Notes: a model not told the origin generated them from the sequence alone. Positions 28,737 through 59,625 are shown, numbered from the whole stretch's first letter. The stretch: DNA of 60,039 nucleotides, filler included, from an uncultured virus (IMG/VR IMGVR_UViG_2502082094_000001) (8 parts of one record of this genome joined end to end with filler, not necessarily neighbours in it); one strand, 5' to 3'. A program made the numbers and translations.

Positions 28737-31431
28737 TTAGTCTGATATCTCCATGTAATCGTCTAATCTCATAGGTCCATCGTCATCATCTGAAGCATCA
28801 ATTTCTACTGTTTCGTTAACCTCACCATCTGAGTCCCAGTTTCGTAACATGTTTTGTGCTTTGGACAGTTTCTTTCTAGCCTCGTGCTCTTCTCGCTCCC
28901 AAGTTTCGTCAAACTCTTGTTGTTCTTTCTTATCTGTACTCCCACCTCCGTCCGTGGGGTCTTCTGATTCATCTATTGCTGTTACAGTTTGAGAGTCTCC
29001 ACCATCATTCTTGAACGCATATTCTTCTAAGCGTGGCTGTCTATTTCCAGACTCGATTTCACTCCACGTCCAGTCTGTGCCTGCTAGTATGCGTTCAGTC
29101 GGTGACTTTATTTGAGTGTTAATGTATTTAGTCCAATCCCAGTCTATTACATCTGGTATGTCTTTCCAATTCATCCAGCAACACGGCTGAGTCTTAGACC
29201 TGTCTCGATCTGGCATGGGGTATTCTGCTGTACCGTCGTCTCCGGGGAGTATACGATTAACGTATGCCATTTTAGGCTTGTCTCCCGGTTGTATACCAGC
29301 ATCAAAGTGTTTGTTTGAATATCTGCTACCCTTAACTGCGGTAGTATCAGTTTCATACTGGTCGAAGTTTTTGGTTACGCTTGCGGGTATACCAAAGTCG
29401 TCAGGGTCAAACTCCAAGTTTTTAAGCTTCTCGATTGTATTACTAAGGTCTTCATGTACGTCTTGTAGATCTCCGTCACGCAGTATGTGATTAAACAACC
29501 GCTCCATAAATTCCTTCGCCACCTTTGAATAGTCTGAGCGTTTGTACTCAAAGCCTACAATATCCAGATCATCTTTTACTTTGCCCTCTTTCCACCCTAT
29601 CTGACCGGCGTACCGTTTCTTTTTGCCTGCTTGGAAGAAGCTTTCGTATAGCTTTTCAAACTCGATTTGGAAGAAATGCTCATCAGCATTTAGCTCTCGC
29701 AAGGCGAACTCATCATACCTGTTGTTTATTCTGCGCTCCATCTCGAAGCCAATGACTAGAACAGCAAACCATTTATTGAACTCCGAGTCTGACATTTCAC
29801 CTCGTTTGTCTTCTACTCTGGACCTAAACTCATGAACGCTGTCAACTCCATGCTCATCAAGCACATGGTTTACTTTCTGCTGATCTTGTATTATGCTTTG
29901 GTCTATCTCGTCTACCTGTATCATTACAGAGTCTGTATCGCCGTATACAGATTGATAGCCCATGTCTTCTACAACCTCTTCAGTAAATTTTATGACTTCA
30001 CGGCCTACAGCCGTTACAGCAGCTCCGACTTCTCGATCTTGCAGACGGAAGCGGTCCCAGCCCATTACTCCGTATAGAGTATTCATAACGACCTTCACCG
30101 CAGTTTGTTTGCGGTCGTAGATTGCGTATTGCTCTGAGTCAGGTGGGTATTGATCTCGTAGATCTTTGTACTGTTGCCGCTCCTCAAGCATTTCGTCAAT
30201 AATTTCTACGACTACTGCGTCCTCGTCGTTATTAAAGCTAATCCCGTTTGGAGCAACAAGTTCACCATCTGGGTCCTTTGTCTCAGGACCAGCATTGATG
30301 GTCTTCATTGACATGGGATATAGAGACTTAAGGTCCAGTACTACAACGTCGTCCTTTACGCCTGTGATTGGGTCAAATACTTTCGCGCCTTCAAACTCTT
30401 CAGTTTCTACGTTTCCAGCACTAGGTACTGCCCACGTACCATTGACTGCGCGGAGTACCTTAATATCAACGGCCTTGCTAGCGTCAACAACTTCTGCTAG
30501 TCTGCCACCGACATAGTTTGCTATCTCCTCATAAAACTTGATTATGTCTTGTTTTTCTTCGAGTTCTACAGTGAGTTTAACATCCTTGAAGTTGTAATCC
30601 ACAAGCTTTTGTGGGTCTTCTTTCCAAAGCACATGTAGATCTCGANNNNNNNNNNNNNNNNNNNNNNNNNNNNNNNNNNNNNNNNNNNNTTAATTAATTA
30701 ANNNNNNNNNNNNNNNNNNNNNNNNNNNNNNNNNNNNNNNNNNNNATTGCGTCAAAATCTCGTTTAATCACGTAATTCGCAAACGAACGAAGCATTCTGG
30801 CTTCGTCGGTGAACACCTTTACTTCTGCTGTCTCATGGTGTACATCTGGAAGCTCCGGGTGGTATAGCCAGACTATATAATCTTCTTTGTAGTTATCGTA
30901 TGCTGTTATAGCTGTTACTTCACGTTGTGCTTTCTCTTGGTCTGGGAAGCCTTCTGAGTCATCAACCTCAATGTCAGCGAAGCACACACGGCTACGCGCA
31001 CTGAAATCAGAGTGTTCTATATTGTCGAATTTAATTTCTGTAGGCTCAGGGGTAGCATGTTGCTCTGGTATTCTTATAGCCCCTTCTATTCCGTTATCTA
31101 TCATTACTCGGTTGGGCCAGAGTATGTCTGCTTCGTGGTGAGTGTACCCACTCCTAACCTTAGGCACATCGGCAGGTATTCTAGTAACCACTTTTACCAT
31201 GTGGTCGCCCTGTATATTTTCGTAACCCTTCTCACATCTAACCACTATGTCCTGGTTCTTTATATCAGAGTTAAACTCCTCAAACGGAACATAGAAGTAA
31301 GGCTGTTCTTCGGTGTTTGTGAGGTGTACTCTAGTACCTCCGGCTGTTCTGCCAAGCAAGTGTATTACTCCGTTTGGTCCATTCTCATACTCAACAGTGT
31401 AATCTCTCTTTTTAAGATCTACATCAATCAT
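28737..31431 (-). CDS. polB: Family B DNA polymerase (interrupted by assembly spacer 30646-30745)
   Basis: ExoI FADIEV; DLKSLYPMSM; KVVMNTLYG; YGDTDS; KKRYAG; PIP-like QPRLEEY and an acidic tail. Confidence 0.95.
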
Positions 31432-32366
31432 TCAGACTTACCCAACTTTCTACTTATTGAGCAACTAATTGAGTTTATGAACCTTTCACTGAATTCTTCT
31501 GAGAGTATTACTTGGTATTCTATATTAGATGTCTCTTCTCTGAAAAACTCATGTATTGAAAAGTTGTGATAGGATATAGATTTCCGTCTAACTTCACTAA
31601 CAGCGGTAAAATCTAGTAAGTGCTCAGTCAAACACCATACAAATAAGTTTTTAATTGATATAGAGGTACTGGTAAATGAACACTTACCAACACGTTCGTC
31701 GTAGTGACCTTCAGAGTCATATAGACCACTAATTAAGTATATAGCTTCTTCAGTTGTAAGCTCATCGACCCACTCAGTCCAGGTCCCAGACATGTATTTA
31801 TCCATTTCTAGTGTTAACTCTTTACTCACCTTTGTTGCGTAGTACATGTTATCTGTGGTTCCTTCTGTTATTGAACTTCTATCTAAATTAGTAAATTCAC
31901 ATAACCTGTTACAGTACATCTCTTTAAACGATTCATCTGCGGTACTTAATTGTATTTTGTGCTGGCCTTTCTCTGTAATTACAGATCCATCTCCAATTAA
32001 AACCCCTATGACATAAGCCTTGCTAGGACTCATTTCGTCTATACCATCAAAAGTTATTTTAGTACCTCTGCTGTTGTGTTCTATTCCAGCCTTTGTTAGC
32101 CACTCGTTCCACCCGCCATTTCTTTGAAACCAACTGCCTGATGGGCAGTCAAATTCTAAATTGCTTCTCCAGTTATTGTATTCATTTCTGCTAATTCTTT
32201 CGCCTGGAGTTTCAGAGTTACACTGCCTCATAACCTCCAGTACGTCTTCTTCGTCATATTTACCTCCTTTTGTGCTATGATTTTGTTCAGAAGCACCTAT
32301 GTTTAAATTACTTGGATTATATCTCCCGTTACCCTCTTTGTCGTTTCTGAATGAGTCTAGTCCCAT
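31428..32366 (-). CDS. Free-standing LAGLIDADG homing endonuclease with N-terminal endonuclease-associated repeat
   Basis: AYVIGVLIGDGS and LISGLYDSEG motifs; PS...F..NGGWNEWLTKAGI repeat; starts MGLDSF. Confidence 0.8.
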   Translation of the reverse strand: MGLDSFRNDKEGNGRYNPSNLNIGASEQNHSTKGGKYDEEDVLEVMRQCNSETPGERISRNEYNNWRSNLEFDCPSGSWFQRNGGWNEWLTKAGIEHNSRGTKITFDGIDEMSPSKAYVIGVLIGDGSVITEKGQHKIQLSTADESFKEMYCNRLCEFTNLDRSSITEGTTDNMYYATKVSKELTLEMDKYMSGTWTEWVDELTTEEAIYLISGLYDSEGHYDERVGKCSFTSTSISIKNLFVWCLTEHLLDFTAVSEVRRKSISYHNFSIHEFFREETSNIEYQVILSEEFSERFINSISCSISRKLGKSE

Positions 32367-32460
32367 AGTTAAGCCACCTTGTCAGTGAAACGTTTCTACT
32401 CGTATACGTATATGTGTCACATACGTATAAATGTTTGTCCGTATGCTACTACCCGCTGTG

Positions 32461-33009
32461 TTATCTGTTTTCGACATAAGTGCTTGGCATTAGTTCACTT
32501 AGAGTATGATATTTTATTTCCCAGTTCCAAGATGAAACCTGCTCAGGATCTCTACGATAATCTGGGTCTGCTACTGATATGTACTCTATTTCTGCTGGAT
32601 TCCAGTTATAGTGGTCTGATAGACCGCGTATAACCTGAAGACAGTGGCCGCAGACCAGACTGTGGTCGTTTTTAGTTGTTGCTACTACGATCTTTTTCAA
32701 ATTTGAATCGGTCAGTATGGCCTCAGACTGTATATCTGCAACTAGATTGAACATGGCAAGTTGCTCAGCATGGACCTTGTACTCCATGCCTGATATATTT
32801 ATGTTAATGCCTCCATACAGTTCCGTGTGTATATCTGTGTCTGATGCGTAATTAGTCTCAGAGCATCTAAACTCTACTACGGCTATTGCTCCGACACCGT
32901 ATTCCGAATACGTGTCTACTCCGTTACTTGCTAGCTCGGCTGCCATTTGAGCAAGCATATCATCGTGATCATTGATCTCGTATCTTGTGTTAATTCTTCG
33001 GTGAAGCAT
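32461..33009 (-). CDS. cdd: Cytidine deaminase-like protein
   Basis: YSEYGVGA, G.NI, HAEQLA and CGHCLQ zinc motifs. Confidence 0.8.
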   Translation of the reverse strand: MLHRRINTRYEINDHDDMLAQMAAELASNGVDTYSEYGVGAIAVVEFRCSETNYASDTDIHTELYGGININISGMEYKVHAEQLAMFNLVADIQSEAILTDSNLKKIVVATTKNDHSLVCGHCLQVIRGLSDHYNWNPAEIEYISVADPDYRRDPEQVSSWNWEIKYHTLSELMPSTYVENR

Positions 33010-33116
33010 TGTGTATGAGTGGAGTTATTGTATTCTACGTACAATAATTATGTGTTTTGTGGGTTTAATAGTTTTGGTTACTGTGCTAATGTCCGACTGA
33101 GTGCTCATGTGTTTAA

Positions 33117-34549: not shown

Positions 34550-35370
34550 TTAGGCTCCAGTTTCTAGTCTGGGTGCGATTATATACACTACTTGAGCCTC
34601 ACCAGCCTCGTCTAGTGTTATGTCAAACCTTACTGGGTTATCTTCTTTTACGTGGATTGTTACTGCCTCTCCTTCTGTGAATATTGTTTTTATGTCTTTT
34701 AGGTAGTCAATGCTTATGTTCGTTACGTGTTCTCCCAGACCATCATCTACTGAAGGGTCATGGTTGTGGAACTCTTTTTTGAAGTTCCCTGCTGTTTTGT
34801 CACTCGTCGATATTCTAAGCGTTTGGTCGTATGTAGCGAACTCAATGCCTCTTCCAGCATTTGAGGTCATCGTGTCAGCACGTTGTACTGTCTTCTTGAG
34901 TTCTGAGCCGCCGACTCTCACTTGGCTTTTGTGAGTAAGAGGGTCAACATTAGGAATTGACGGTACATTGTCTGGATTAACTGTAGGCACCTCAAACTGT
35001 ACATCTTCATCTAACACATCAAGCCGCATTAATCGTGTACCACCAGATCCAACTGGCCATACTACGTTAACGTCGCTTGTGCTTTTGACTGTAGACAAGC
35101 AATCTAGCATTCTGTCGTATTCCACGCCGATCTCTATTTCATCGGCGTTGTTCAGCTCAAGACTATTTAGTGCTTGTCCTTTAATCCTAGCAATACACAT
35201 GCCAACATTTGCTGGGTCATTCACTTTGCTGTACACGTTATTTTCAGTGAACGTTAGTCTACCTTCATCTCTGAACGATGCTACGGCATCAATGAAGGTT
35301 TCTAGGTACGAGGCTGTACAGCCGAACTTTACGTTTTTGTCTTCTATTTCTGTTTCAACTGGGCTATTGA
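34550..35370 (-). CDS. pcn: PCNA sliding clamp, 5' partial
   Basis: LETFIDAVASFRDEGRL, DPANVGM, ISIDYLKDI, NPVRF and YIIAPR motifs typical of archaeal PCNA. Confidence 0.85.
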
Positions 35371-35573
35371 NNNNNNNNNNNNNNNNNNNNNNNNNNNNNN
35401 NNNNNNNNNNNNNNTTAATTAATTAANNNNNNNNNNNNNNNNNNNNNNNNNNNNNNNNNNNNNNNNNNNNCTTGGATCAGTATTGTCGCCGCTAGTGCTG
35501 CTAGTATTATTACCGCTACTGTTTGAGGACTTATTATCATTGTCTGTTTGATCAACGTCTGAGTTGAACTCGT

Positions 35574-36497
35574 CTAGTCCCATTGTGGATGATCGTAGAC
35601 GAAAGCGTCATCATCTCCCTCCCAGTTCTCGTGGGGGTCTACTCCTTCCATACCGGGACACTTGCCTTCTTTGTAATAGGTACAGAATTTCTTACACATG
35701 TACTCTCCTTTCGGGTTCCGTGGCGGAGGTGTCCCTGTATTTACTGCGTTTAGCGTAGTAGTGATGCTATCCACAGCCTGCTCAAACAGATCTTCGTCGA
35801 ACTCTATCCAGTACTCCTCAATGTGGTCATTGCGTTTTGAGTAATACAAAAGACAACCTATGTCTGCTCCGATTATTCCCATATAACCGTTTAACTGCAT
35901 TAGGTTGTCTTCTTTAGGTACTGTTCTAGCGTGTCCGTTCTTACCGTAGTTATAATACTTGAACTCGCTTTTGGTCTTAATGTCTATTACAAATGGATCT
36001 GGAAAGCCTTTTATGCTCTCAGGGTCTAGGTTTATACCTGCTGGTAAAGCATTATTGAGTTGTTCTACAGACTCAAGCCCACGGATTACTATATCCGCGT
36101 GACCGTAGATGTAGTACTCATCGTTAATGTCGTAACTGACTGTTTCTTCAGTGCTTACATGCTCGTGCCCCAGATGTTCTATGAGCATATCTTGGATAAG
36201 CTCGTGGATCGCGTCTCCGTGAGCAAATGTCCAATTTGCGTCATTATCCAAGTCTGGAACATCTAGGTTCTCGTCTAGTTTGTGGACATATTTCAAATAG
36301 TTCTTCCGCTGACAACTATCTGAACTTGACAAGTGACCTCTAGTAGGGTCGGTATTGTGGTATGACCCGCTTTGTTCTTCACTCACTAGCTCAGAAAGCA
36401 ACGAGTGTACTGGACCTTCTCGTGAGTCGTTGGGAGCGTGTACCTTATCTAAGTCATCTAATGGATCCTCGACGATCTCCTTTTCAAACTCAACCAT
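35574..36497 (-). CDS. Cas4-like PD-(D/E)XK exonuclease with Fe-S cysteines
   Basis: CQRK, GDAIHE, GHAD, IDIKT, QLNGY and C...C......C motifs. Confidence 0.8.
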   Translation of the reverse strand: MVEFEKEIVEDPLDDLDKVHAPNDSREGPVHSLLSELVSEEQSGSYHNTDPTRGHLSSSDSCQRKNYLKYVHKLDENLDVPDLDNDANWTFAHGDAIHELIQDMLIEHLGHEHVSTEETVSYDINDEYYIYGHADIVIRGLESVEQLNNALPAGINLDPESIKGFPDPFVIDIKTKSEFKYYNYGKNGHARTVPKEDNLMQLNGYMGIIGADIGCLLYYSKRNDHIEEYWIEFDEDLFEQAVDSITTTLNAVNTGTPPPRNPKGEYMCKKFCTYYKEGKCPGMEGVDPHENWEGDDDAFVYDHPQWD

Positions 36498-36543: not shown

Positions 36544-37365
36544 TCAAGCAGTCCACTCGTCTACCTCCTCATCCACCTCTTCATTGTACTTTGCTTCAAC
36601 TCTTGTTCCAGAATCGGATATTTCAAGTCTGAACAGCTCTTTACCTTCGCCAGCCTGTCTTGATCTGTGTGCGTTGATCTTACATGTAGTTTTTATCTCA
36701 CTGCTGCTACTTTTCTCAGTTAGCCACAGCTCCTTGAACGCGAACTGGCTTTTGTCGCCAAACGGTACTTCACCAGTACTATCGCTTAGCTCAGACTTTG
36801 GCTGATTAGTTGTTACTATCAGCGCATTATTCATCTGGGCATATTTCTTCATCTGCCCGCTCATGAACTGAATCATCTGGAATACAGTGAATTGGTCTGC
36901 GTCGTCTTCTATACTGTATTCATCATAGGCCATGAGCGCAGGGAAGCCCAGAGAGTCTAGAATTACAACGTCATACCCACCTTTTAGAGTATTACTGTTT
37001 GTTGTGTTTTGCCCGAACGGGTTATCTGACAGTCTCGACTTTTTACCGCTGATGTATGCGTACAGATCATTAAAGTCTGGAATGTACACATAATCGGAGC
37101 CATCTAGACGTTCATTGTTACTAAGATTGCGCTCAGTATCAATGAATAACACGTCTTTGTTCTCCTGATTCAACGCTGACTCGGCAAGACTCACACAGAA
37201 TTCTGTTTTACCACTCCCAGTCCCACCAAATACTTGAATGAGATCTGGGCCGCCACAGAATTCTATAACCTGCCGTATCAGATTGTTGTCTGTAGCTTCG
37301 ACGCTACTACTTGTATTGTTGCTCTTTTCATCATTTCCGTCTAGGTTTATTTCTAGATCAGTCAT
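36544..37365 (-). CDS. RadA/RadB-like RecA-family ATPase
   Basis: QVFGGTGSGKT, FIDTE, VILDSL, TTNQ. Confidence 0.85.
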   Translation of the reverse strand: MTDLEINLDGNDEKSNNTSSSVEATDNNLIRQVIEFCGGPDLIQVFGGTGSGKTEFCVSLAESALNQENKDVLFIDTERNLSNNERLDGSDYVYIPDFNDLYAYISGKKSRLSDNPFGQNTTNSNTLKGGYDVVILDSLGFPALMAYDEYSIEDDADQFTVFQMIQFMSGQMKKYAQMNNALIVTTNQPKSELSDSTGEVPFGDKSQFAFKELWLTEKSSSSEIKTTCKINAHRSRQAGEGKELFRLEISDSGTRVEAKYNEEVDEEVDEWTA

Positions 37366-37937
37366 TACTGAAACTCGTCCAATTCCTTGTTGTTACCAGA
37401 GTCTGACTCATCTAGTACATCTTCTGTCATAAAGTCTACCATGTACACATTTTCAACTCTGTACCCTCCTTTGGTTTTACTGCTTGATGGCTCTGTTTCA
37501 GAGTCTGTAATTACAAGAAACTTTATATCGTTCTTCTTTTCGTTGTACAGATTTAGTAGCCGCTCTGCCATGTCCGTGTTGCCTGTTATAAGGTTAACAG
37601 TTGGACCTGAGCGGAAGGTAGGGCCCTTCCGGGCTACTAAGCTGACTGCTTGTCCTACGTCTTCTCCGTTTAATGCTTGGTCCTTATCCTTTGGGTTAAT
37701 CCACTTAGAAACCCAGGACGCCTTAGCATTCTTCATAGTCATGCGGTGAACTATGAAACCGGAGTCAAATTCTAGTTTATCTTTTACATTCTTGAGTGAA
37801 TTTAACACACTCACCATTTCCTTCTTTTGTTCTTGCGTCGGCTGTCTATCCTCCCACTCTTCTTCCGTGAGAGGCATAATGTGCTTTGTATACACATCTA
37901 GATGTGGTTTTCTCACTTTTGAGGTTTCGTCTGTCAT
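37365..37937 (-). CDS. Hypothetical protein ending in KELDEFQ
   Basis: ORF within the recombination operon. Confidence 0.65.
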   Translation of the reverse strand: MTDETSKVRKPHLDVYTKHIMPLTEEEWEDRQPTQEQKKEMVSVLNSLKNVKDKLEFDSGFIVHRMTMKNAKASWVSKWINPKDKDQALNGEDVGQAVSLVARKGPTFRSGPTVNLITGNTDMAERLLNLYNEKKNDIKFLVITDSETEPSSSKTKGGYRVENVYMVDFMTEDVLDESDSGNNKELDEFQ

Positions 37938-39300: not shown

Positions 39301-39752
39301 ACCATACCCGATTTAACATAAACACCGAACGGTTATAATTGTTATGGTATACACCCATGATAAGTGAGATTAGCTGTGGTAATGGCATGAAGGAGGTGGC
39401 TTACCCTGCGCTGTGGCTGGTTCTTTACTGCTCATAACACATACTCTATTATTTTATTAGTCTAGTACGGATACTTCGCAGTTGAGACATATACTACCTT
39501 CTCTGTTTTCTTTGTGTCCGTACTCGATCTCGTAGCTGGAGAATGGAACGTCATGTAAGATATTCATTCTTCTACAGATTGTACATCTAGAGATGTCTAG
39601 ATCATAAGCCCGCTCTATGTGGGATATACAGTCTTTACAAGCCTGCGACCTTNNNNNNNNNNNNNNNNNNNNNNNNNNNNNNNNNNNNNNNNNNNNTTAA
39701 TTAATTAANNNNNNNNNNNNNNNNNNNNNNNNNNNNNNNNNNNNNNNNNNNN

Positions 39753-40303
39753 TTCTCACCAGTAGAGAAGTCTCCGTTATCTAGTTTTGAATTAACCTCA
39801 CACGAACTTTGTTTAAGACTAACTCCGTTTGAAACCCAGCCAAGCTTTTGATCTAGCCAAAGCATATAATCTCTGTTTGCCATTACCCATTTCATACGAG
39901 GAGACTTTGAACTTCTGTTAAGAAGAGTTGCGTCTCCCATCAAATGACCAATTAAGATTTGCTTTTGTTTATCGGATATATCGTTCTGAGAACATGGACT
40001 TTGAGCCCAATGCTTTGCGATATTTGTGTAGTGAGTATTACAAGACTCACATTCCACTATTCCATCTATTTCAGATGGACTAATACCAGCTTCTATTTGT
40101 GCTTCTGCAATTGAACCATAGTTGTATGTGTATGTTTTAACTGAAGGCGCTTTTTTACTTGATCCTATCAAGTCACGATTTACATCTCCATGTTTTTCAT
40201 GTATATGCCTTATAATTTTCAGTTTTTCTTCTCCGCTCCATCTGTTACCCGTGTTGGATGGGCTATTGGTCTGTTCTGAAGTTTTAAACTCATCAAGACC
40301 CAT
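39753..40303 (-). CDS. LAGLIDADG homing endonuclease, 3' partial
   Basis: QILIGHLMGDA; PSVKTYTYNYGSIAEAQIEAGI repeat; starts MGLDEF. Confidence 0.75.
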
Positions 40304-46622: not shown

Positions 46623-46781
46623 TTAACTGCTATTATACCAAGATATAGTTTCACAGTCATCCGTGGTACACTTATATTGTACGTGTATCATATGCTCTCC
46701 AACTTTCTCACAACAGGGGCAGACATTATCTGGTCTTTCGTCCTGATCGTCTGGATCTGACTTAAAATCCTCTAGCCCCAT
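46623..46781 (-). CDS. 52-aa Zn-finger protein starting MGLEDF (not in ORF track)
   Basis: MGLEDFKSDPDDQDERPDNVCPCCEKVGEH...YKCTTDDC...YNSS*. Confidence 0.7.
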   Translation of the reverse strand: MGLEDFKSDPDDQDERPDNVCPCCEKVGEHMIHVQYKCTTDDCETISWYNSS

Positions 46782-46790
46782 GTATTGTGC

Positions 46791-47237
46791 TTACGACTTG
46801 AACGACATTAGCCCACCGCTCGGTTCGTCATCTTCGTCATCTGTATTTCTTGTTTTATCAGTATCTGGAATACCAGTAATATCTTCGTTGTTTTGAGTAC
46901 TGGGCTTGTCAGGTGCTTGATTCATTGCTACCTGTCTAAACTGTGGAAACCAATCAGACTCTCGGAAGTCTAGTTGGTCTACTTTCACCATAGCCTCGTA
47001 TGAAGTGGCAACATAGTTGCACTCCATACAAGCACATATGACGTTAAGCGCATCGTCTTCATTGGCTTCGGCTATTCGTAGGTATTCCACAGAATGTAGC
47101 CTGATAGTGGCTGGGATGCTTACTTCTTCTGTGTCAACGCTGTTTGCTACGTGGATACAATTATTATTTGAAGGGCTGTTGCTAGACCTTTTAGATCTAG
47201 AACGTGGGCCTTCTGTTTTGAATGATTCTAGTCCCAT
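46791..47237 (-). CDS. Hypothetical protein, MGLESF start and GGLMSF end
   Basis: Contains CMEC and a motif at both termini. Confidence 0.7.
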   Translation of the reverse strand: MGLESFKTEGPRSRSKRSSNSPSNNNCIHVANSVDTEEVSIPATIRLHSVEYLRIAEANEDDALNVICACMECNYVATSYEAMVKVDQLDFRESDWFPQFRQVAMNQAPDKPSTQNNEDITGIPDTDKTRNTDDEDDEPSGGLMSFKS

Positions 47238-47401: not shown

Positions 47402-48121
47402 TTAACCTCCATCAGATGTATTATTTGTGTTTGTATCGGTAGTATTTGTCGCTTGCTCTTGTGATTCTAGGACTACTCCCGTATCGTTTTCACTTGAATC
47501 GGTTATGTTAGTTGTCTGGTCATCGAGCTGCTGCTGGACTCTAAATGTCGGAGTAATGGAGACGGTAAAGCCTCCGTCGCCCGATATGCCAGTGTAGTCG
47601 AAGTACACGCTCATTGAGAGTGTTCTTGTGGCCTCTTCAAACGCAGGTAACTCTGGAGTGCCGGGTTGAGTCGAGACTAGAGTAAGTGGAAGTGAGCTGT
47701 TAAGCTCTTGGAGCGTGCTTGGAGCATCTGAATGAATCTGCCCTTCATAACTCACATCCTCCAAGATTGTATGCTCTATGATCTCACTTTTGCTTGCCCC
47801 ACCTGCGTCACTAACACTTACTTCTAGACTCGTAAGTTTGAGGTTGGTGGCGTTCAGAGTCCCAGTATTAAGGATCTCCCACGACACTTCGTGTGTGACT
47901 GGTTCTCCTTGATTATCAGAGTAGCTTTCAGCAGGCTCGAACGTATCACTAGGAGTCTGGATCTCCAGACCTATTGATCCTGCTGTAAAGTCTATACCCG
48001 ATACTTGCGTATCAGATAGTGCAGCGTATGTCCCTACACTACCTAATGCGCCAGCCCCTCCCACACCAGCTATTCCTATCAATACCTTTCTTCTCGAAAG
48101 GCCTGAATTCTTGTCTGTCAT
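47402..48121 (-). CDS. SipW-dependent signal peptide protein (TasA/CalY-like)
   Basis: LSRRKVL...GTYAALSDT...FTAGSI, ILNTGTL. Confidence 0.8.
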   Translation of the reverse strand: MTDKNSGLSRRKVLIGIAGVGGAGALGSVGTYAALSDTQVSGIDFTAGSIGLEIQTPSDTFEPAESYSDNQGEPVTHEVSWEILNTGTLNATNLKLTSLEVSVSDAGGASKSEIIEHTILEDVSYEGQIHSDAPSTLQELNSSLPLTLVSTQPGTPELPAFEEATRTLSMSVYFDYTGISGDGGFTVSITPTFRVQQQLDDQTTNITDSSENDTGVVLESQEQATNTTDTNTNNTSDGG

Positions 48122-48146
48122 TTGCTATCTGACGGCTCATCCGTCA

Positions 48147-48188
48147 AGCCCAGCAGGGGAGTCGAACCCCTGGAGCACCGATCTGGGT
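48147..48188 (-). ncRNA. Minimal tRNA-like element
   Basis: ACCCAG-ATCGGTGCTC-CAGGGG-TTCGACT-CCCCTG-CTGGGC-T, directly after the sipW stop codon and followed by a TGACGG/CCGTCA hairpin. Confidence 0.8.
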
Positions 48189-48189
48189 G

Positions 48190-48723
48190 TTACTCTTCTT
48201 CCTCGTTTTGGCTAGCCAGATACAACTGCCACATCCCATCCATCAGCAGGAGTGTAAACGGGAGGACAACTAACGCCATCCACCCAACAGTTGAATCTGC
48301 CATGTTAACTATGTACCCTAGTACTGGTATATGGAATAGTACAATCCCAACTACCTCTGCTCTTACCACTGGCTCAGGGTCTCTCACGTCGTTGTTATCC
48401 CCTTTTGTGATGAAGCGTACACTGTCTGTTATCTCCCCAGTTTTCTTCTCCACCACTCTGTGTGTAGTCGTCTGTCTAATGTCTCTAGCCTGGCTAAAGG
48501 TTATCACGTCACCTTCCTCTATCCGCTCGTCAACCTGACTAGTTGGAACATTATCGACGAACACTACTGAGCCGGTTGGGATTGCTGGTTCCATACTACC
48601 TGATAGCACTATGAACGAGTGGTCTGCTCCTACTATCCACGGGAACGCATGGACCACAAATAGTGCCAGTATACATAGGAGTACTGTGAACCCGAGGACT
48701 TTGATTACTCCTCGGACATTCAC
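48190..48723 (-). CDS. sipW: Signal peptidase I, SipW/Sec11 type
   Basis: VLSGSMEP (Ser), THRV (His), TKGDNN...DP. Confidence 0.9.
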   Translation of the reverse strand: MNVRGVIKVLGFTVLLCILALFVVHAFPWIVGADHSFIVLSGSMEPAIPTGSVVFVDNVPTSQVDERIEEGDVITFSQARDIRQTTTHRVVEKKTGEITDSVRFITKGDNNDVRDPEPVVRAEVVGIVLFHIPVLGYIVNMADSTVGWMALVVLPFTLLLMDGMWQLYLASQNEEEE

Positions 48724-48729
48724 ACTTGC

Positions 48730-49769
48730 TTATCCGCTGTCGTTGTTCTGCGGACTGTACGTGTTCACGAGCGTCGGGCCAGAGGCTGCTCTCTCCTGGC
48801 TGAAGGTGAAGCCGACCTCGACTGTCATCTCGTCACCCATGATCTCGTTACCCGTATCGAAGGGCATGTGCCAGTCGTAGCCGAAGTTAAGGGTCCCAGC
48901 CAGTTGGGAGCGCACTAGCTGGCTGAGTGTTGTCCGTAGTGTCTCCAGGTTTCAGCAAGCTGTCCAGCGAGCATGATGCAGCCCGGATCAACGGAGGTGT
49001 CTGCCGGAGCGTTGATCGTCTGGAAGTTAGACGTTTGGTTGGCGTTGTACGTCTGAGTGCTCTGGAAGGCCCGACCGACTACGTTAGCCAGAGTACGAGG
49101 CGCGAGGTACTCACTATCAATCCCAGCGGGCTGAGTGGAGAATGGAGTCCCTTCGGAGTTAGACCAGAACCCAGATGGAGCCGAGACGCCAGTAGCAGTA
49201 GTCTGCGTAGCAGGCGTGGAGCCGTCGTCGAAGAACTGGCTATCTGCGTTGTTGTCGTAGAACGGGATCAGGTAGATGTTCTCTGCCAACTCGCCATCCG
49301 TGTTGGTCTGAGACTGGTACTCGCCCTCTGACTCTGGGCCAGCGTTGGCTGCCGTCACTTCGGAGTCTGCCTCCACTTCAGGCTCGTAGTTCTTGGCATC
49401 AACATCTTCCGCGACGTTGAGACACGCTCCCACGAACGCTGGATTGTTCGTCACTTCGAGCGTGAAGTTGATCGTACCGTAATCTCCCGGCTTCACGTCG
49501 ATAAAGTTGACGGTTGCTCCTGCGCCCTCCCCATCCAGAGTGACCAGACTGGTGTCTCCAGTAAGGTCGTCTCCGTTGTATGTGAGGTTGGTGGAGATTG
49601 TACCGTCAATTGCTCCTGCCGTGAACGTAGCAGATTGACCTTCGGTGTCAGTTAGTTGTGCGACTGTTCCTAGCCCCCCGATACCGGCAGCGGCTCCAAT
49701 GGAGCCAATGCCAGCGAGAGCTTGCCGCCGTGACAGGTTTGAGAGCCTGCTAGAGCTGTCTTCGCTCAT
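48730..49769 (-). CDS. SipW-dependent TasA-like protein (apparent frameshifts near 48900-48950)
   Basis: LSRRQAL...GTVAQLTDTE...FTAG, DVKPGD.G, NNPA; the C-terminal FGYDWHMP...NEIMGD..GFTFSQ lies in another frame. Confidence 0.75.
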
Positions 49770-49810
49770 TATCTTTATGCGGTAGTCCGCTAGCCTTCCC
49801 CGTATAGGGA

Positions 49811-49853
49811 AGCTCCGCCGAAGAATCGAACTCCGGCCATACCAATCAGAGCT
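49811..49853 (-). ncRNA. Minimal tRNA-like element
   Basis: As 13-55; the allelic change turns a U-A pair into a U-G wobble, so pairing is kept. Confidence 0.75.
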
Positions 49854-49866
49854 GCTTCAACAGCCA

Positions 49867-50424
49867 TCACACTTCGTATTCTCTAAGTCTTATCATTTCC
49901 CCATCTACACTATCTTTAACAGCTCTTAGGAGCTTTTTAAGCACATATGACTCACTTCTATCATTGTGCTCGGCTACCTTTTCTATCCATGTTGCTAATT
50001 CATCATCCACATACACACTCTTTTGCTTTTTCACATCTTCCTTTTCTATATGTTCAAATTCATCAGATATTTCTTGAAGCGCTTGAACCCTAGTTTGGTC
50101 AACGTCTCCAATCTCTATGATCTTGACACAGTCTTCTTTGACGGCTGCCACATCTACTCGAATCAAGTTGCCGTCAAGCTCTACAACATCGACTAGTGCA
50201 TTGATGAAGTCAGTAGGTATTACTGCTTCTACCATCACGTCCCAGCCGTCTCTAGTCAGTGACTTTCCAGCGCTCAGCTTTAGATCAAAATGCTGTTCGC
50301 CTTCATAGCCTACCCTAAACTCATCTTCGTTAAAGATGAAGTCGTAATAGGTATTGACCTCGTTATGCTTTTTGAGCGTGCGCCCGATGCCGAGGCTAGT
50401 CTCTTCAATCATTGGAGTCGTCAT
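49867..50424 (-). CDS. Putative PD-(D/E)XK-like domain fused to RHH-like domain
   Basis: GWDVMVE...RVDV.A......IIEIG; C-terminus homologous to 59-277. Confidence 0.45.
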   Translation of the reverse strand: MTTPMIEETSLGIGRTLKKHNEVNTYYDFIFNEDEFRVGYEGEQHFDLKLSAGKSLTRDGWDVMVEAVIPTDFINALVDVVELDGNLIRVDVAAVKEDCVKIIEIGDVDQTRVQALQEISDEFEHIEKEDVKKQKSVYVDDELATWIEKVAEHNDRSESYVLKKLLRAVKDSVDGEMIRLREYEV

Positions 50425-50755
50425 CTCCGTCCAATTCTTCTTCTATTGCCTCACATCCTCGACGGATTGCTTCAGATGCTAGGCCCGATTTAGTCCCATT
50501 ATACTTATCAGCTAAGTCATCAAGCACTTGTGCCGCTCCGTCATCTATTCTAATCCTTTTCATGTATTTAAGTCCACTCCTTGGCCCCTATATTGGCGAT
50601 ATTCGGGAGTTTTCCCATATATACCCCATGTATTGGACGGGTAATAAATGTAACGAAAAAGCAAACCTAACAGCCACTGGATACTCCATGCTTGTAGTAT
50701 CCTAGTATATTGTCGGTACATTTATGAACCTTGTATGCGTACCTGCTAGCGTAGC

Positions 50756-51165
50756 ATGGAAATACAAGATCTGAAAACACAGCTAGAAAACGAGCTGTTA
50801 GATCAAGAGGATGTAACAGCCGTAGGCATCGGACATGATGAAGATGGCAACGAAGTAGTTGTGATAAACGTAGATTATGGCAAGACTAACAGTGTTGCTA
50901 TTCCTAGTAACATCGACAGTTCAAATGTCGAGATTAGGGAGACTGGTAAGTTCCACGCAGAGGTAGTCCGTGGGCAGCAACCACAGGAGATTGATAGAAA
51001 GGCTAAACACAGGCCAGTACCTATGGGTGTATCTGTAGGACACTTTAACATTACTGCTGGTACTTCTGGCTTCATCGTGACTGATGGGAACTCTGAGTAC
51101 GTCTGCAGCAATAACCACGTATATGCTGACATAAATAATGCTTCTGAAGGAGACAGTATCGTACA
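50756..51165 (+). CDS. Trypsin-like serine protease, partial (allele of 447-1139)
   Basis: Near-identical sequence. Confidence 0.75.
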
Positions 51166-51265
51166 NNNNNNNNNNNNNNNNNNNNNNNNNNNNNNNNNNN
51201 NNNNNNNNNTTAATTAATTAANNNNNNNNNNNNNNNNNNNNNNNNNNNNNNNNNNNNNNNNNNNN

Positions 51266-51581
51266 CGTTGACTTCTGCAGTGGAGTCAGGTGAAGATGAT
51301 GTATCACTACCTCCATCGGATGGATTCATCCATTCTGGAGTATCATTTGACTCGTTTGTCTCATTAGTAGTGTTGTCTACTTCATCACCGCTCTGCCCCA
51401 CGTCGGATGTGTTGTCTCCTGTAACATTATCACCATTCTCTTGCTCAGGTGTTGTATTGTTAGCGGGTGGAGGCTCAGGGTTCTGTACTTCCGGTGAGTC
51501 ATCAATTAATGCTGAAGATATAAATAAGGCGGAAGCACCCACAATCAATGAAAGAAAGAATACTAGCTTCTTATTTCCCAT
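51266..51581 (-). CDS. Secreted/membrane-anchored acidic protein, partial
   Basis: N-terminal signal or TM helix followed by N/T/D-rich linker. Confidence 0.65.
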
Positions 51582-51583
51582 AC

Positions 51584-52609
51584 TTAGCTCGCGCCTGTAT
51601 TGGACGTACTAGTATCTCCGTCTCCTTCACTTGCGGTATTAGACTGCGACGTTTCGTTATTTACCGTAACGTCGAAGGACGTTTCTGAGTGGATGATTGC
51701 TGGATGATCTGAAGCGTTATCCCGTAGAACGTTGTAAGGGATTCCTGCTCCGCCAGCGTAACCATCGAAGGACGGGTAGCCATCCTCTCCGTTCATTACT
51801 ATTGCCGAGTTGCCTTCGTCAATGTCGGAAGCAAGCATCTCCGAACCTTCTGGCATCGCGCGGGTAGCAGCATCAGCTAGTTCTTCTAGCGTGGCCTCAG
51901 AGCCAGGATCGTATCTCCGGTATGGAGCATTGTCGAAGATGTACTCCAACTGGCTACGGTTAGGACGTTGTAGCTCTACCGTGTAGCGAAGCTCCACTTC
52001 GGTAGTGGCACTTTCACCATCTGTTTCTTGGTCAAACGGAGAGGCTGGGTACGGCTTGGTTGAGGCTGCTGCTCCGTAGTACCCTGCGTTTTGCGACGGG
52101 AAGTTATTCTGAAGCGTCAGATCTAGGTTGTTACTGGCTTGACCGGCACTCCCCATCGAAGTACCATCTAAGTATGATTCTTCAGACGCTGGCCCGTAGC
52201 TATTCCAGTCCGCGCCGGGGTAGTCTGGGGCTCCATTAGGATCTGCGATGGATAGGGGACGGCCTAGCCGGGACTCGAAGTTATCAAGCTCCAGCGTACC
52301 TGTAGTACCCATTTGCTCTGGGCTGAGCCACGGGGTAGCCCTGTAGATTGGATACCAGTCTCCACCGGCAACTCGTGCTTCTACGAGCCAGAAGACCTTA
52401 CCAACCGTCTCATCAAAGTTAGCCCAGTTAACGTCGAAGTCTGGACTAATTGTTACTTGAGTAATGTCTCCACGGTCATTAGATACCGTAGCATCATTAC
52501 TTTGGATTGAGAGCCCGGACTGTGCTCCAACTGTTTGAGTAGCTGTGAATGCTCCCGCACTGATTACTCCAAGGGAGCCAACTGCCTTAACGAACGTTCT
52601 TCGTTCCAT
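51584..52609 (-). CDS. Secreted protein with twin-arginine-like signal
   Basis: MERRTFVKAVGSLG...; acidic, more GC-rich codons. Confidence 0.7.
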   Translation of the reverse strand: MERRTFVKAVGSLGVISAGAFTATQTVGAQSGLSIQSNDATVSNDRGDITQVTISPDFDVNWANFDETVGKVFWLVEARVAGGDWYPIYRATPWLSPEQMGTTGTLELDNFESRLGRPLSIADPNGAPDYPGADWNSYGPASEESYLDGTSMGSAGQASNNLDLTLQNNFPSQNAGYYGAAASTKPYPASPFDQETDGESATTEVELRYTVELQRPNRSQLEYIFDNAPYRRYDPGSEATLEELADAATRAMPEGSEMLASDIDEGNSAIVMNGEDGYPSFDGYAGGAGIPYNVLRDNASDHPAIIHSETSFDVTVNNETSQSNTASEGDGDTSTSNTGAS

Positions 52610-52654
52610 GTTTATCACTCAGTAGTCTGCTAGCCAGCGGGCTAAAGCCCGCAA

Positions 52655-54027: not shown

Positions 54028-54132
54028 ATTGTNNNNNNNNNNNNNNNNNNNNNNNNNNNNNNNNNNNNNNNNNNNNTTAATTAATTAANNNNNNNNNNNN
54101 NNNNNNNNNNNNNNNNNNNNNNNNNNNNNNNN

Positions 54133-54305
54133 TCAGTGTCTGGTTGATCTGTACCTGGATCTGTGCTCACACGTTGAGCATCGCGGTCTACTTCAAACCC
54201 TACAGCTAGTGGCTCTTGCTCATTTGATTCATCATCATCGTCTGTGGATGAATCACTGCTTGAGCTTGATGAGCTACTATCTGTTTGGAAGTCATCTAAT
54301 CCCAT
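54133..54305 (-). CDS. Hypothetical protein starting MGLDDF, partial
   Basis: N-terminal tag followed by a poly-Ser/Asp linker. Confidence 0.7.
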
Positions 54306-54423: not shown

Positions 54424-55041
54424 TTACCAGTGTTCTATGTCTGTATGCCCCTTCAACTCAGTATCTACATCGTCACTTTTCCTGAAGCGTTGAGTGTATG
54501 ATTCTCCATGTATAGCTTTCATAGCATGTTCTGTGTCTTTGATAGACCAGTCATCTGTCATGCTATCAGCCATAGCCATCTTGACTACGTGTCTCACTTG
54601 GTGGAATGTGTTTACTACAACCTGAGTATCAGGTCCAACATCACTACCAAATCTGTTCTCTAACTCCGACATACACTCATCTTTCTCTACTTCTCCAGTG
54701 TCCAGCATAATGACTTCTCTTGGGACATTACCCAAAGTCATTTGCTGGGTAGACAAGCAAGATACAATACCTTCTGCGTCACCCAGCGTGTAGCGTGCTG
54801 CTGTATTGTACTCTGAGTCTTTAGTTATAATCGGGAATACAGGTAGTCTGTACTTGATTGAATCACTATTTACGCTTATGTGATCTTCTACAGTGTCTTC
54901 AAATTCACTATACGACTCGTACCCGTATGGGCCTGTGTTGTCTTCTGCTTGTTTTGGATCTTGAGACTCGTTTGAATCGTCTTCATTATTGTCTGACCCG
55001 CTACTACTCAAGTCTTCATCTATAAATTGCTCAAGCCCCAT
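54424..55041 (-). CDS. Hypothetical protein starting MGLEQF; paralog of 59628-60039
   Basis: Shared VSC...LG...E..M.D.G...K.E.M.E.E.R.G block. Confidence 0.7.
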   Translation of the reverse strand: MGLEQFIDEDLSSSGSDNNEDDSNESQDPKQAEDNTGPYGYESYSEFEDTVEDHISVNSDSIKYRLPVFPIITKDSEYNTAARYTLGDAEGIVSCLSTQQMTLGNVPREVIMLDTGEVEKDECMSELENRFGSDVGPDTQVVVNTFHQVRHVVKMAMADSMTDDWSIKDTEHAMKAIHGESYTQRFRKSDDVDTELKGHTDIEHW

Positions 55042-55051: not shown

Positions 55052-55351
55052 TTACTCTTCTAGGTAATCCTGGATGAACTCTTCGACGTTCTCACGTAGT
55101 CTTTTTTCCTCATCTGGGTCAAGATCTACGTTGTGCTCATCTGTGTCAAGGATCTCGTTTGCTCTTTGGATGATTGCTTTATCACCGTTCCCGTCAGCAC
55201 ATAGTGCTGCCTCCATAGCCCAGTCAGGGCTACGGGCAATCATTCCAGTCCAGAAAGCCTCGTCAACAGTAACGTTCCCTAGTTGCTTTCGGGTTTTGAT
55301 GGTCGTTTCCTCTTCTTCTTGCTCAGATTGTTGAAATTCTTCTAGTCCCAT
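55052..55351 (-). CDS. Hypothetical protein starting MGLEEF
   Basis: Acidic ORF within the operon. Confidence 0.7.
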   Translation of the reverse strand: MGLEEFQQSEQEEEETTIKTRKQLGNVTVDEAFWTGMIARSPDWAMEAALCADGNGDKAIIQRANEILDTDEHNVDLDPDEEKRLRENVEEFIQDYLEE

Positions 55352-56124: not shown

Positions 56125-56126
56125 TG

Positions 56127-57456: not shown

Positions 57457-57465
57457 TGCTTACAA

Positions 57466-58426
57466 TGATTCTGTGTACTTAGCGCACGTTGCTCAGACCT
57501 TTCCGATGACATCTGTTGAGTCTTTATCAAGTGCTGTTCTGAGTATGGTTTTGAACTCTACTCTGCTAAGCACTTTCTGGAACTGTTCACTGGATAATTC
57601 GTACTTGTATAGTGGACGTATGCTGTCTAGCTCGATGTTGAACTCCGCATTATTACTTATTATGTCTGATTCCTCGATTCCATTTTTTTGCCTATCAAGT
57701 GTTTCTACACCCTGAAAGCACCCCTTTTTTATCGAGTGCTCATACACTCTTGATGTTAAGCTTGAACCTTCCTCTACTTGCCCTACGTACCAGAACACTC
57801 TTCCGTCCGATGATCTAGTACATTTTAGGACATATACGAAGGCATCAGCGTTTTTATCGTAATCTGGATGTGTCTTTACCAGATTTGACCAGTACTTGTA
57901 GCTTTTACCGCTGTTATTGTTTCTTCTTTCGTTTGCGTTTCTGTACGCTATTTGCTTGTCTGTTACTTCTATTCCTAGACTTATGAGCCCGTTTACAAAT
58001 GAGCCATCTCCATACTTCTTTGAGACTGTACCAGCGGAAAAGGTACAGTGCTCATCTACTTTTGACTTTGTCACTGGCTTATCCAGTTTTGCTAGCTCAT
58101 TTGAGGCTTCGTTTTTACTAGGAGCACTTCTCATGTTTTGCTTTAGTGAGAGATGCTCCTTTACGCCATTAAATGTCTTGTCCGTGTACTCCTTTATGGT
58201 TGTATGGTGTATACCGTTGTTTTCTCTTCTTAGATCTGCTAATGTGAAGCTTTCACCGCACTTTTCTGCTGTTTCAAGAAACATTCTGTATATTTCTGCT
58301 TCAGTTAATTTGTTATCCTCGGCTTCTCTACTTTGATCTCCTGATGAGAATTGTTCTAATCCCATGCGTCAATATACCAAACCTATATAAATAAACTTTT
58401 TGTTTTCACTAGTTTATTGATTCTGT
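57466..58426 (-). mobile_element. Homing endonuclease cassette flanked by TGATTCTGT direct repeats
   Basis: Absent from the allele at ~3460; 9-bp repeat at 57466-57474 and 58418-58426. Confidence 0.8.
57493..58365 (-). CDS. GIY-YIG endonuclease with N-terminal endonuclease-associated repeats
   Basis: FVYVL...WYVGQ...SRVYEH; starts MGLEQF. Confidence 0.75.
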   Translation of the reverse strand: MGLEQFSSGDQSREAEDNKLTEAEIYRMFLETAEKCGESFTLADLRRENNGIHHTTIKEYTDKTFNGVKEHLSLKQNMRSAPSKNEASNELAKLDKPVTKSKVDEHCTFSAGTVSKKYGDGSFVNGLISLGIEVTDKQIAYRNANERRNNNSGKSYKYWSNLVKTHPDYDKNADAFVYVLKCTRSSDGRVFWYVGQVEEGSSLTSRVYEHSIKKGCFQGVETLDRQKNGIEESDIISNNAEFNIELDSIRPLYKYELSSEQFQKVLSRVEFKTILRTALDKDSTDVIGKV

Positions 58427-58861
58427 ATTTTTACAGTTGGGGAACCAAGAACACCCGTAAAATTCTTCACCATTCGAGTTCTCTCGGATCACCATAGTAT
58501 TGCCACACTCTTCGCACTTTTTGACGTTACCTTGTTGCTTAGCGAGCTTGTTGATCTTCTTTTTCAAGTTCTTTTTCCAAGTTTGTATTCTGTTAGTACG
58601 TCTTTCTTTGAGTACTGGACGGCCACTATCCGTATGTAGCACTACTGTTCTGATAGCGTCTGAACCTCTACTACGTGCTTCTCCAGTGCGCTTATCAAGC
58701 GATGAATAGACACGTAGCGTGAATGTGTCGTCTTTTGACTTAGCCTCGTATATCAGTTCTCCTGACCACGGGTAGTCTTTTCTTTCAAAGTCCACGTCGG
58801 TTTCTGAAAGAGCCTGTTCAAACTCTTCTTGGATAATGTCTGAGTATTTTCGGTTACTCAT
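58409..58861 (-). CDS. Protein with topoisomerase-type Zn ribbon
   Basis: CEECG...FYGCSWFPNC. Confidence 0.7.
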   Translation of the reverse strand: MSNRKYSDIIQEEFEQALSETDVDFERKDYPWSGELIYEAKSKDDTFTLRVYSSLDKRTGEARSRGSDAIRTVVLHTDSGRPVLKERRTNRIQTWKKNLKKKINKLAKQQGNVKKCEECGNTMVIRENSNGEEFYGCSWFPNCKNTESIN

Positions 58862-59067
58862 AGTATAGTACGGTGTACTTGATCTTCACTGTCTTCTGTT
58901 TTGTTTTTTAGCTCATCTAACGTACCGTGTACTTCTAAGCGATTCTTGTTGTGTAATCCGATATTTTCTGAATTTACTACCTCGTATTTTGCTTCTACCT
59001 CGTCTCCAGCCATTACACAGTACAAACTACGTTTACTACCGTCAAGCGTCAAGACGTATACTGGCAT
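58858..59067 (-). CDS. Hypothetical protein
   Basis: Coupled ORF. Confidence 0.6.
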   Translation of the reverse strand: MPVYVLTLDGSKRSLYCVMAGDEVEAKYEVVNSENIGLHNKNRLEVHGTLDELKNKTEDSEDQVHRTIL

Positions 59068-59099
59068 TGTTTTGTGCTAGTTTTATGTCGTCTCGGACA

Positions 59100-59140
59100 A
59101 GCCCCGTTAAGGAGTCGAACCTTAAAAATCCAAGCGGGGT
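59100..59140 (-). ncRNA. Minimal tRNA-like element
   Basis: ACCCCG-CTTGGATTT-TTAAGG-TTCGACT-CCTTAA-CGGGGC-T. Confidence 0.8.
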
Positions 59141-59145
59141 GTGGG

Positions 59146-59625
59146 CTATCCTTTTGTGTCTAGCTCTTCTAACTTGGAATCAATTGCTCTGTAAAGCTCA
59201 GTCTTCCAAGCGTCTGTTGCTTCGATTATCCGTTCATTGCCAACAGGTTTATACTCCTCTAAGTTCCAGCGAGTTACCTTTATTGGTTTATTATCTTCTG
59301 GCTCAACGTTACCAGTCACCTGTTGTATAGTAGTGAATACCATTACTGTTTCACCACTTTTCTTTGCGTTTGTGCCAGCACCGTACATGACTAGCTCACC
59401 CTCCTCAAAGCGGTCAGTACTGAATTGTTTTACCCACTTGTTGCCGAGAGCTTTGATCTGGGATTTTATGGCTCTTGGCGTTATTTGGAACTTATCGTAG
59501 AATGCCTCGTTTGCTGCAGATGGGGAGTTAACCGCTTTCTTAGGCTCGCTTTTGCTTCGTGTTGAAGTGGAATTGTTACCACTTGAGTTGCTCGACGAAT
59601 CTTGCTGGAAATCTTCTAGTCCCAT
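59146..59625 (-). CDS. Hypothetical protein starting MGLEDF
   Basis: N-terminal tag followed by a Ser/Asn linker. Confidence 0.7.
   Translation of the reverse strand: MGLEDFQQDSSSNSSGNNSTSTRSKSEPKKAVNSPSAANEAFYDKFQITPRAIKSQIKALGNKWVKQFSTDRFEEGELVMYGAGTNAKKSGETVMVFTTIQQVTGNVEPEDNKPIKVTRWNLEEYKPVGNERIIEATDAWKTELYRAIDSKLEELDTKG

Follow-up and report, generated by a model that had tools for sequence, protein, structure and literature searches.

A peptide at the start codon of many unrelated early proteins of an uncultured hypersaline virus may be a glutamine-less docking motif for the sliding clamp

In phage T4 the gp43 polymerase as well as gp33 and gp55 carry tails that bind the gp45 clamp, and in bacteria the beta-clamp-binding motif QL[SD]LF, a short hydrophobic terminal peptide, is found on many clamp clients, in some of them at the N terminus. 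In archaea and eukaryotes the PCNA-interacting protein (PIP) box reads Q-x-x-[ILM]-x-x-[FY]-[FY]. Passages of PMC2737543 place PIP boxes at the extreme N or C terminus of proteins, next to a disordered linker, and describe the polymerase tails of H. volcanii as PIP boxes in which Met replaces the last aromatic residue. PMC4929162 gives KTTQSTLDSFFK as the consensus peptide in complex with A. fulgidus PCNA, and the same source depicts TIP, a PCNA inhibitor of Thermococcales, as starting with a putative N-terminal PIP box followed by a short unstructured linker. Here we analyse a 60-kb window (60,039 nucleotides) from an uncultured virus, IMG/VR IMGVR_UViG_2502082094_000001, in which eleven proteins begin with a hexapeptide of the form MG[LV][DE]xF, hereafter called the tag.

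A six-frame scan of the window for MG[LVIM][DE].[FYW] returned 11 occurrences, all of them on the minus strand and all at the start of an open reading frame (ORF), 0-29 codons past the previous in-frame stop, with none at an internal position or in another frame. An earlier note on this DNA had listed ten such starts; each of these is present with the peptide named there, and an eleventh, MGLDEF at 35583, had been missed. Rather than being one continuous molecule, the window consists of draft contigs joined end to end, and it matches contig C2 (111,825 bp) of the nearest genome compared, G001, at 96-100% identity with the pieces in another order. This near-identical scaffold, G001:C2, was used as a fuller stand-in for the element. 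Because the piece orders differ, gene neighbourhoods across the joins are not evidence: those across 35371-35470, 39653-39752 and 54033-54132 are artificial, and the tagged genes 35583, 40303 and 54305 are truncated there. The tagged genes of the window are the following.

31428-32366, minus strand: MGLDSF; 312 residues; LAGLIDADG-type endonuclease, directly upstream of the family B DNA polymerase (PolB) gene; PF14528, E 1.4e-7
35471-35583, minus strand: MGLDEF; truncated by a contig linker; the G001:C2 copy has an internal GGLESF
39753-40303, minus strand: MGLDEF; truncated by a contig linker; weak LAGLIDADG match, PF03161
46623-46781, minus strand: MGLEDF (MGLKDF in the C2 strain); 52 residues; Cys-rich by eye
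46791-47237, minus strand: MGLESF N-terminally, with another copy, ...SGGLMSFKS, at the C terminus; 148 residues
53153-53431, minus strand: MGVDSF; 92 residues; orthologues of related viruses start MGVDNF, MALDGF, MALDNY and MGIDNF
54133-54305, minus strand: MGLDDF; truncated by a contig linker; the full form on C2 has 378 residues and a second in-frame MGLEDF
54424-55041, minus strand: MGLEQF; 205 residues; without known family
55052-55351, minus strand: MGLEEF; 99 residues; tag kept in a C2 paralogue and in the orthologues of relatives
57493-58365, minus strand: MGLEQF; 290 residues; GIY-YIG-like as a lead only
59146-59625, minus strand: MGLEDF; 159 residues; without known family

The tag is specifically enriched on this element. 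At the nucleotide level, the pattern ATGGGNBTNGANNNNTTY has 11 matches in the window, against a mean of 0.07 and a maximum of 2 in 100 dinucleotide-preserving shuffles. In G001 (1.2 Mb in 7 contigs, a member of a phylum with 70 small genomes), 14 of the 15 matches are on the minus strand of C2, between 32 and 81 kb, as compared with a single match for the reversed control; the remaining 69 genomes of the phylum contain 0-3 matches each, 55 in total, similar to the reversed-pattern control. The enrichment claimed earlier thus stands in comparison with these 69 small genomes, which made up the scan. Within the element, placement is equally uneven. When counted on a greedy ORF set with residue 2 broadened to [GSA], the tag is carried by 16 of the 92 ORFs of the minus-strand replication/early block of C2 and by none of the 102 ORFs elsewhere on that contig, the corresponding figures for the window being 10 of 55 and 0 of 48. 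The variants found on C2 include MGLEEY, MGLKDF and MSLEDF. A strain difference also concerns residue 4: Glu at 46764-46781 (MGLEDF) is Lys at G001:C2 49983-50000 (MGLKDF), and C2 74331 likewise reads MGLKDF, so that an acidic residue at position 4 is not strictly required.

Searches further afield returned little. An IMG/VR scan with the codon pattern of MGLE[DE]FQ gave 31 single matches against about 28 expected by chance on a rough estimate, 1 of them at an ORF start, and a homologue search with the 99-residue tagged protein matched only itself. No published description of the tag was found in the literature, a search outside which lie the supplements of a 2025 nanohaloarchaeal virus preprint that may hold relevant genomes.

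The tag is kept throughout a lineage of uncultured hypersaline viruses. This is best seen with the tagged UvrD-like helicase of C2 (2.4e-27): among the 120 homologues listed, the 45 nearest clusters, at 55-100% identity, without exception start M[GAS]L[DEN]xF, followed by a variable Ser-rich stretch and then by a second conserved peptide, G-G-V-[DE]-[DE]-F-[LI]. In a 40-row helicase alignment M1, L3, F6 and F29 are invariant and the linker is variable. Fourteen more distant clusters (48-57% identity) begin at the helicase core, without the whole extension; in a clade at 30-33% identity 2 of 20 members start MGLDEL, and none of 36 homologues of the haloarchaeal chromosomal type bears the tag. 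In 15 related metagenome loci, which together span 107,352 bases, 44 ORFs start with the tag, every one of them on the strand of the helicase gene; 64 distant control loci (709,041 bases) contain 2 tags, and a locus at 30% identity contains 0. Within every one of the six largest families of tagged proteins, similarity is higher over residues 1-6 than over residues 7-30. Some of the tagged-helicase orthologues (P0009, P0020, P0028, P0031 and P0046), like some PolB orthologues (P0288, P0298, P0309 and P0310), are 350-400 residues longer and contain Hint/intein domains; inteins have thus invaded the helicase and PolB genes in this lineage.

Among 61 distinct tags, residue 2 is Gly, Ala or Ser in 49, 7 and 5 cases, residue 3 Leu, Ile or Val in 54, 5 and 2, and residue 6 Phe or Tyr in 59 and 2. 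The earlier note had argued from synonymous codon variation that selection acts on the peptide. This argument holds in so far as the four degenerate codon sites all vary and replacements stay within a residue class (G to A/S, L to I/V, F to Y). It is weakened by a codon skew, GGA making up 41 of the 49 Gly codons as against 31% genome-wide and CTA 27 of the 54 Leu codons as against 25%, with CTG and TTG never used; moreover, untagged genes likewise prefer A at the third base of codons 2-4. Comparative conservation is stronger evidence than the codons for selection on the peptide. A DNA-level element as the main cause was rejected: no shared promoter or leader was found upstream of the tags, where the DNA is not conserved.

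As had been proposed, the tag is followed by what looks like a flexible linker. Residues 7-30 are made up of S/T/N/Q/G/P to 54%, of D/E to 22% and of hydrophobic residues to 11%, as compared with 32%, 18% and 32% in the bodies of the proteins. The bodies themselves differ, in agreement with the earlier claim that the carriers are unrelated, since the 11 window proteins show no mutual BLAST similarity behind the tag. The approximately 17 tagged genes of C2 include three paralogue pairs (30-39% identity), and the 62 tagged proteins obtained by pooling with relatives fall into 17 BLAST families, on which ground paralogy was rejected as the cause of the shared tag. Besides the helicase, a SprT-like protein (8e-12) can be named among the C2 carriers; tagged SprT-like proteins occur in 4 relatives, and one tagged protein has an HD domain. 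The note had further assigned two LAGLIDADG proteins and one GIY-YIG protein to the window. The Pfam match bears out the former for 31428-32366, the match of 39753-40303 is weak (E 0.02, on a truncated gene), and for 57493-58365 neither Pfam nor PHROGs gave a match, the Atlas feature matches to GIY-YIG clusters (0.80-0.82) lying below the score bar. Homing-endonuclease-like proteins do carry the tag, as was claimed, and the tagged proteins that can be named, helicase, SprT-like protein and LAGLIDADG endonucleases, all act on DNA.

The core of the tag, L-[DE]-x-[FY], recurs in the tail that ends the viral PolB and in the tails of the PolB orthologues. The genes concerned, other than those listed above, are these.

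28737-30645, minus strand: PolB, C-terminal part; ends ...DDDDGPMRLDDYMEISD, with an L-D-D-[FY] core as in the tag
30746-31431, minus strand: PolB, N-terminal part, on the next contig piece
37365-37937, minus strand: 190-residue protein; ends ...NNKELDEFQ, a C-terminal copy of the core

The end of the polymerase, ...GPMRLDDYMEISD, reads ...GPMRLDDYM..., and there is an internal QPRLEEY about 90 residues earlier; together with ...SGGLMSFKS of 46791-47237 and ...KELDEFQ of 37365-37937, these are the copies away from the N terminus that the note had pointed out, and all are present. In the nearest PolB orthologues an acidic stretch is followed by G-P-x-x-L-[DH]-D-[FY]-[ML], in most cases right at the C terminus. 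Further copies at a free end or inside a protein are ...ATLDQFG at the end of a methyltransferase fragment on C2, the internal GGLESF and the second in-frame MGLEDF.

The same core is that of cellular PIP boxes. In G001, tails of the cellular type are found on two PolB proteins (...KQSGLDRFG and ...EQTGLASFM) and on RNase HII (...QQNSISDF), and haloarchaeal chromosomal PolB proteins end in ...EQTGLGSFM. The tag equals the cellular Q-x-G-L-D-x-F minus its Gln, MGLDSF aligning residue for residue with Met at PIP position 2. An N-terminal location has parallels among polymerases: the PolB of HGTV-1 starts with MSGLTSF and ends with QSGLAQFM (22147-25026), and a Haloarcula PolB starts with MSDGTQGTLGDF; no wide use of the tag was seen in the 50 kb around the HGTV-1 polymerase gene. 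Chromosomal PolB proteins of the Haloarcula type (P0336 and others) have, as a separate observation, both a PIP-like Q-G-T-L-G-D-F within the first 12 residues and a C-terminal Q-T-G-L-G-S-F-M.

When compared with the PIP box, the tag has the L-x-x-F spacing (an aliphatic residue at position 4 and an aromatic one at position 7, h-x-x-a) with a small residue before the Leu, lies at the extreme terminus beside a disordered stretch (11 ORF starts, with linker-like residues 7-30), and is accompanied in the same genome by a canonical clamp client, the DNA polymerase, with the core in its C-terminal tail. Unlike the PIP box, it lacks both the Gln and the second aromatic residue, is anchored on the initiator Met and is present on approximately one-sixth of the genes of the block; owing to the two missing residues it is a PIP-box-like variant rather than a strict member. 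T4 would be analogous in using its own clamp as a platform and in having a polymerase-like tail on several unrelated proteins, whereas its tails are C-terminal and few and its clamp is not a PCNA; here the peptides are N-terminal and far more numerous. The bacterial QL[SD]LF motif is likewise a short hydrophobic end peptide on many clients, with another clamp family and another consensus. TIP resembles the tagged proteins in its putative PIP box at the extreme N terminus and the short unstructured linker before a folded body (PMC4929162), but its motif looks canonical and belongs to a single protein of a single family, as opposed to at least 17 families here.

A second case of a peptide shared with the polymerase was found in HVTV-1 (NC_020158.1), a haloarchaeal tailed virus of about 100 kb whose PolB is about 30% identical. 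Seven of its proteins, encoded on the same strand within 33.8-51.7 kb, end in [VP]L[DEGS][FYW]: PolB (...GGVLSW), the clamp-loader subunit gp87, the DNA methyltransferase gp89, the HNH endonuclease gp92 and three unknowns, gp69, gp90 and gp99. These represent 7 of 1721 six-frame ORFs, as compared with 1 of 1981 in the reversed sequence. As in the present element, the polymerase tail is common to other proteins of the replication block; in contrast to it, the carriers number 7 instead of about 17, and their tails stand at the C terminus with a shorter L-x-F spacing. Hence, in two distant viruses the shared tag takes the form of the virus's own polymerase tail, and the forms differ between the viruses, as would follow if a common reader also held the polymerase. 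HVTV-1 possesses a divergent clamp (Kazlauskas et al. 2016, PMC4889955), and a term search of the text of that article returned neither 'PIP' nor 'clamp-binding'.

A candidate reader is encoded by the element itself.

34550-35370, minus strand: viral PCNA sliding clamp, candidate tag reader; 272 codons, with the start codon alone lost at the contig end

That only the start codon is missing follows from a 76% identical relative that is 273 residues long. Residues 18-270 match A. fulgidus PCNA (E 1.8e-19) and H. volcanii PCNA is also matched (7.4e-12), so that the earlier identification of a true PCNA homologue is upheld over its full length. The protein has 312 relatives at E<=1e-3 and shares no more than 19% identity with the cellular-type PCNA of G001. 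As reader of the tag, this divergent viral PCNA would be the likeliest, with the host PCNA as another possible one.

Our preferred interpretation, to which we assign a probability of about 0.62, is that the tag represents a PIP box lacking its Gln and beginning at the start codon, which would tether many unrelated early proteins to the sliding clamp. Accordingly worded as a mechanism, a docking motif M-[GAS]-[LIV]-[DE]-x-[FY] would be followed by a flexible Ser/Asp/Glu-rich leash; Leu3 and Phe6 would enter the hydrophobic pocket of a PCNA subunit, like Leu4 and Phe7 of Q-x-x-L-x-x-F-F; and the clamp on replicating DNA would thereby tether the helicase, the SprT-like protease and homing-endonuclease-like proteins, along with a large number of small, functionally unassigned proteins. 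The C terminus of the viral PolB employs the same core, likewise without Gln. The sequences show the enrichment, the conservation of the peptide across the virus lineage, its position at free ends ahead of a linker and its identity with the polymerase tails; PCNA binding by tags and tails, the PCNA involved and the advantage gained are inferred. The clamp-hub proposal of the earlier note is partly supported: it gains from the identity with the PolB tail and with cellular PIP boxes and from the placement at a free end before a linker. The codon argument is weaker than stated there, and tagged gene 35583 is close to the clamp gene only via an artificial contig join.

Several further points weigh against this interpretation. 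The Gln expected at PIP position 1, where the viral PolB tails mostly have Pro, is absent, the tag starting with Met at position 2; and position 8, which should be a second aromatic or hydrophobic residue and is M or L in the viral PolB tails, corresponds to residue 7 of the tagged proteins, found as K, Q, S, I, M or T. Most tagged proteins are without known function, a DNA-related role being apparent for few only. Family searches recognised no clamp loader on the element, nor any RFC, FEN1 or ligase with which the polymerase tail could be compared. The polymerase tail could in principle dock elsewhere than on the clamp. Since the codon choice of the tag is not neutral, an RNA-level constraint may act in addition. 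Finally, many of the counted tags are those of orthologues and the counts exceed the number of independent events, and because IMG/VR scans with the PCNA and with the helicase returned no relatives, what is known of the lineage comes solely from pieces of metagenomes and a single draft scaffold.

Alternatively, the tag may be a docking peptide with another reader, such as the polymerase, SSB/RPA, a primase-helicase, a RecA-like protein or another replisome or host hub; we regard this as rather unlikely, although it fares best among the rivals. The acidic tails of T7 and T4 that end in an aromatic residue act as docking peptides, and acidic stretches are found behind the tag and ahead of the PolB tail. 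Such a reader would also sit well with the missing Gln and second aromatic residue, and the replication block offers unannotated proteins of 190, 322 and 402 residues without family. T7-type tails, however, require the aromatic residue at the very C terminus, and the motif is N-terminal here; furthermore, the L-x-x-F spacing and the small residue before the Leu match cellular PIP boxes exactly. The C-terminal tails of archaeal PolB proteins are, in addition, established PCNA binders, as seen in a PolB-PCNA complex entry among the matches of the clamp and in part of PMC2737543.

An improbable explanation is that the tag controls synthesis or lifetime, as a translation-initiation context, a site of Met removal or N-terminal modification, or a degron timing the early proteins. 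Gly, Ala and Ser at residue 2 permit Met removal, and residue 2 is always one of these three; the A-ending codons, preferred in the tag as at codons 2-4 of untagged genes, and the confinement of the tagged genes to one co-oriented block would fit as well. Nevertheless, this leaves unexplained why Leu3 and Phe6 are invariant, why copies occur internally and at C termini, and why the polymerase tail has an identical core; moreover, the upstream DNA is not conserved, and the untagged neighbours in the block are presumably expressed too. Least probable is a virion or procapsid address or a maturation-protease site, for which the short N-terminal capsid-targeting sequences of T4 internal proteins provide a precedent and the small size and acidity of many carriers some encouragement, but which is at odds with the location of the tagged genes in the replication block and not in a structural block, with nameable carriers that are replication and repair enzymes, with the lack of a recognised head protease or capsid gene nearby, and with a DNA polymerase that ends in the same core.

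The Gln-less PIP box allows a more far-reaching version, which we put forward tentatively as possible rather than probable: that of a private addressing code, in which the virus's own divergent PCNA would read a start-codon dialect of the PIP box and gather approximately one-sixth of the early proteins. The clamp would then be a scaffold for homing endonucleases, the helicase, the SprT-like protease and small proteins that may be directed against the host; host clients of the Q type would be kept apart, and a second start tag would constitute a second channel addressed to another reader. A peptide of that kind was indeed noted outside the window. The start M-x-R-P-[FLI]-x-[DEN]-[KML]-R-P-x-G-P-[FLIV] is found on nine ORFs of G001:C2, at 83987-93306 on the plus strand and at 111478-111515 on the minus strand; these 9 matches on C2 are the only ones in the 1.2-Mb genome, as compared with 0 for the reversed control. 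The eight ORFs that were compared include one DNA methyltransferase and have bodies without BLAST similarity. The core of this second tag, K-R-P-I-G-P-F-F, appears to fit an h-x-x-a-a spacing.

As for the nature of the element, it encodes, besides PolB and PCNA, dCTP and dCMP deaminase-like proteins, a Cas4/RecB-like nuclease, a RecA/Sak4-like ATPase and a DUF3987 helicase-like protein; the UvrD-like helicase and the SprT-like protein are on C2 only. By PolB, its nearest isolates are HVTV-1, HCTV-5, HCTV-1 and HGTV-1, haloarchaeal tailed viruses of approximately 100 kb, at about 30% identity. Family searches recognised no capsid or terminase gene among its proteins, and the label 'virus' is therefore based on the replication genes and on relatives in hypersaline metagenomes. 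The host may be either the archaeon whose small genome is G001 or some other halophile. Against phage records, 10 kb of the window gave no megablast match, and the helicase matched only bacterial phages, all at less than 30% identity. The pieces of the window are joined as follows.

12570, 16569, 30646, 35371, 39653, 51166 and 54033: N44-TTAATTAATTAA-N44 six-frame stop linkers, 100 bases each
1140, 2633, 3897, 5809, 8216 and 56947: N20 gaps

Near-identical gene copies are present on separate contig pieces (1136-2584 and 16952-19168; 447-1181 and 50756-51217; 3249-3452 and 57253-57456). The repeated genes, namely those of a YadA-head-repeat protein starting MLRARARGTKPF, of a protein starting MEIQDLKTQLENE and of a DUF5049 protein, probably explain why the assembly breaks at those places. 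The stretch 47402-52618 stands out by a GC fraction of 0.51-0.53 against about 0.42 around it, and contains a camelysin/M73-like peptidase (PF12389, 7.9e-6) and N termini that resemble, by eye, signal or twin-arginine peptides; it has the appearance of a foreign block, coding for secreted proteins, within the early region.

Should the tag bind PCNA, the sliding clamp would serve much of the viral early proteome as a general platform for recruitment, beyond the replication enzymes alone. About 17 families of unknown proteins would then gain a first testable property, clamp binding, and free-standing homing endonucleases would reach DNA via the clamp, which would give a new view of selfish genes in viral genomes. 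A Gln-less, Met-anchored form would also widen the definition used in searches for PIP boxes, which usually demands Gln. The parallel with HVTV-1 suggests that the habit of tagging may be general in large haloarchaeal tailed viruses, and offers a cultured system in which it can be tested.

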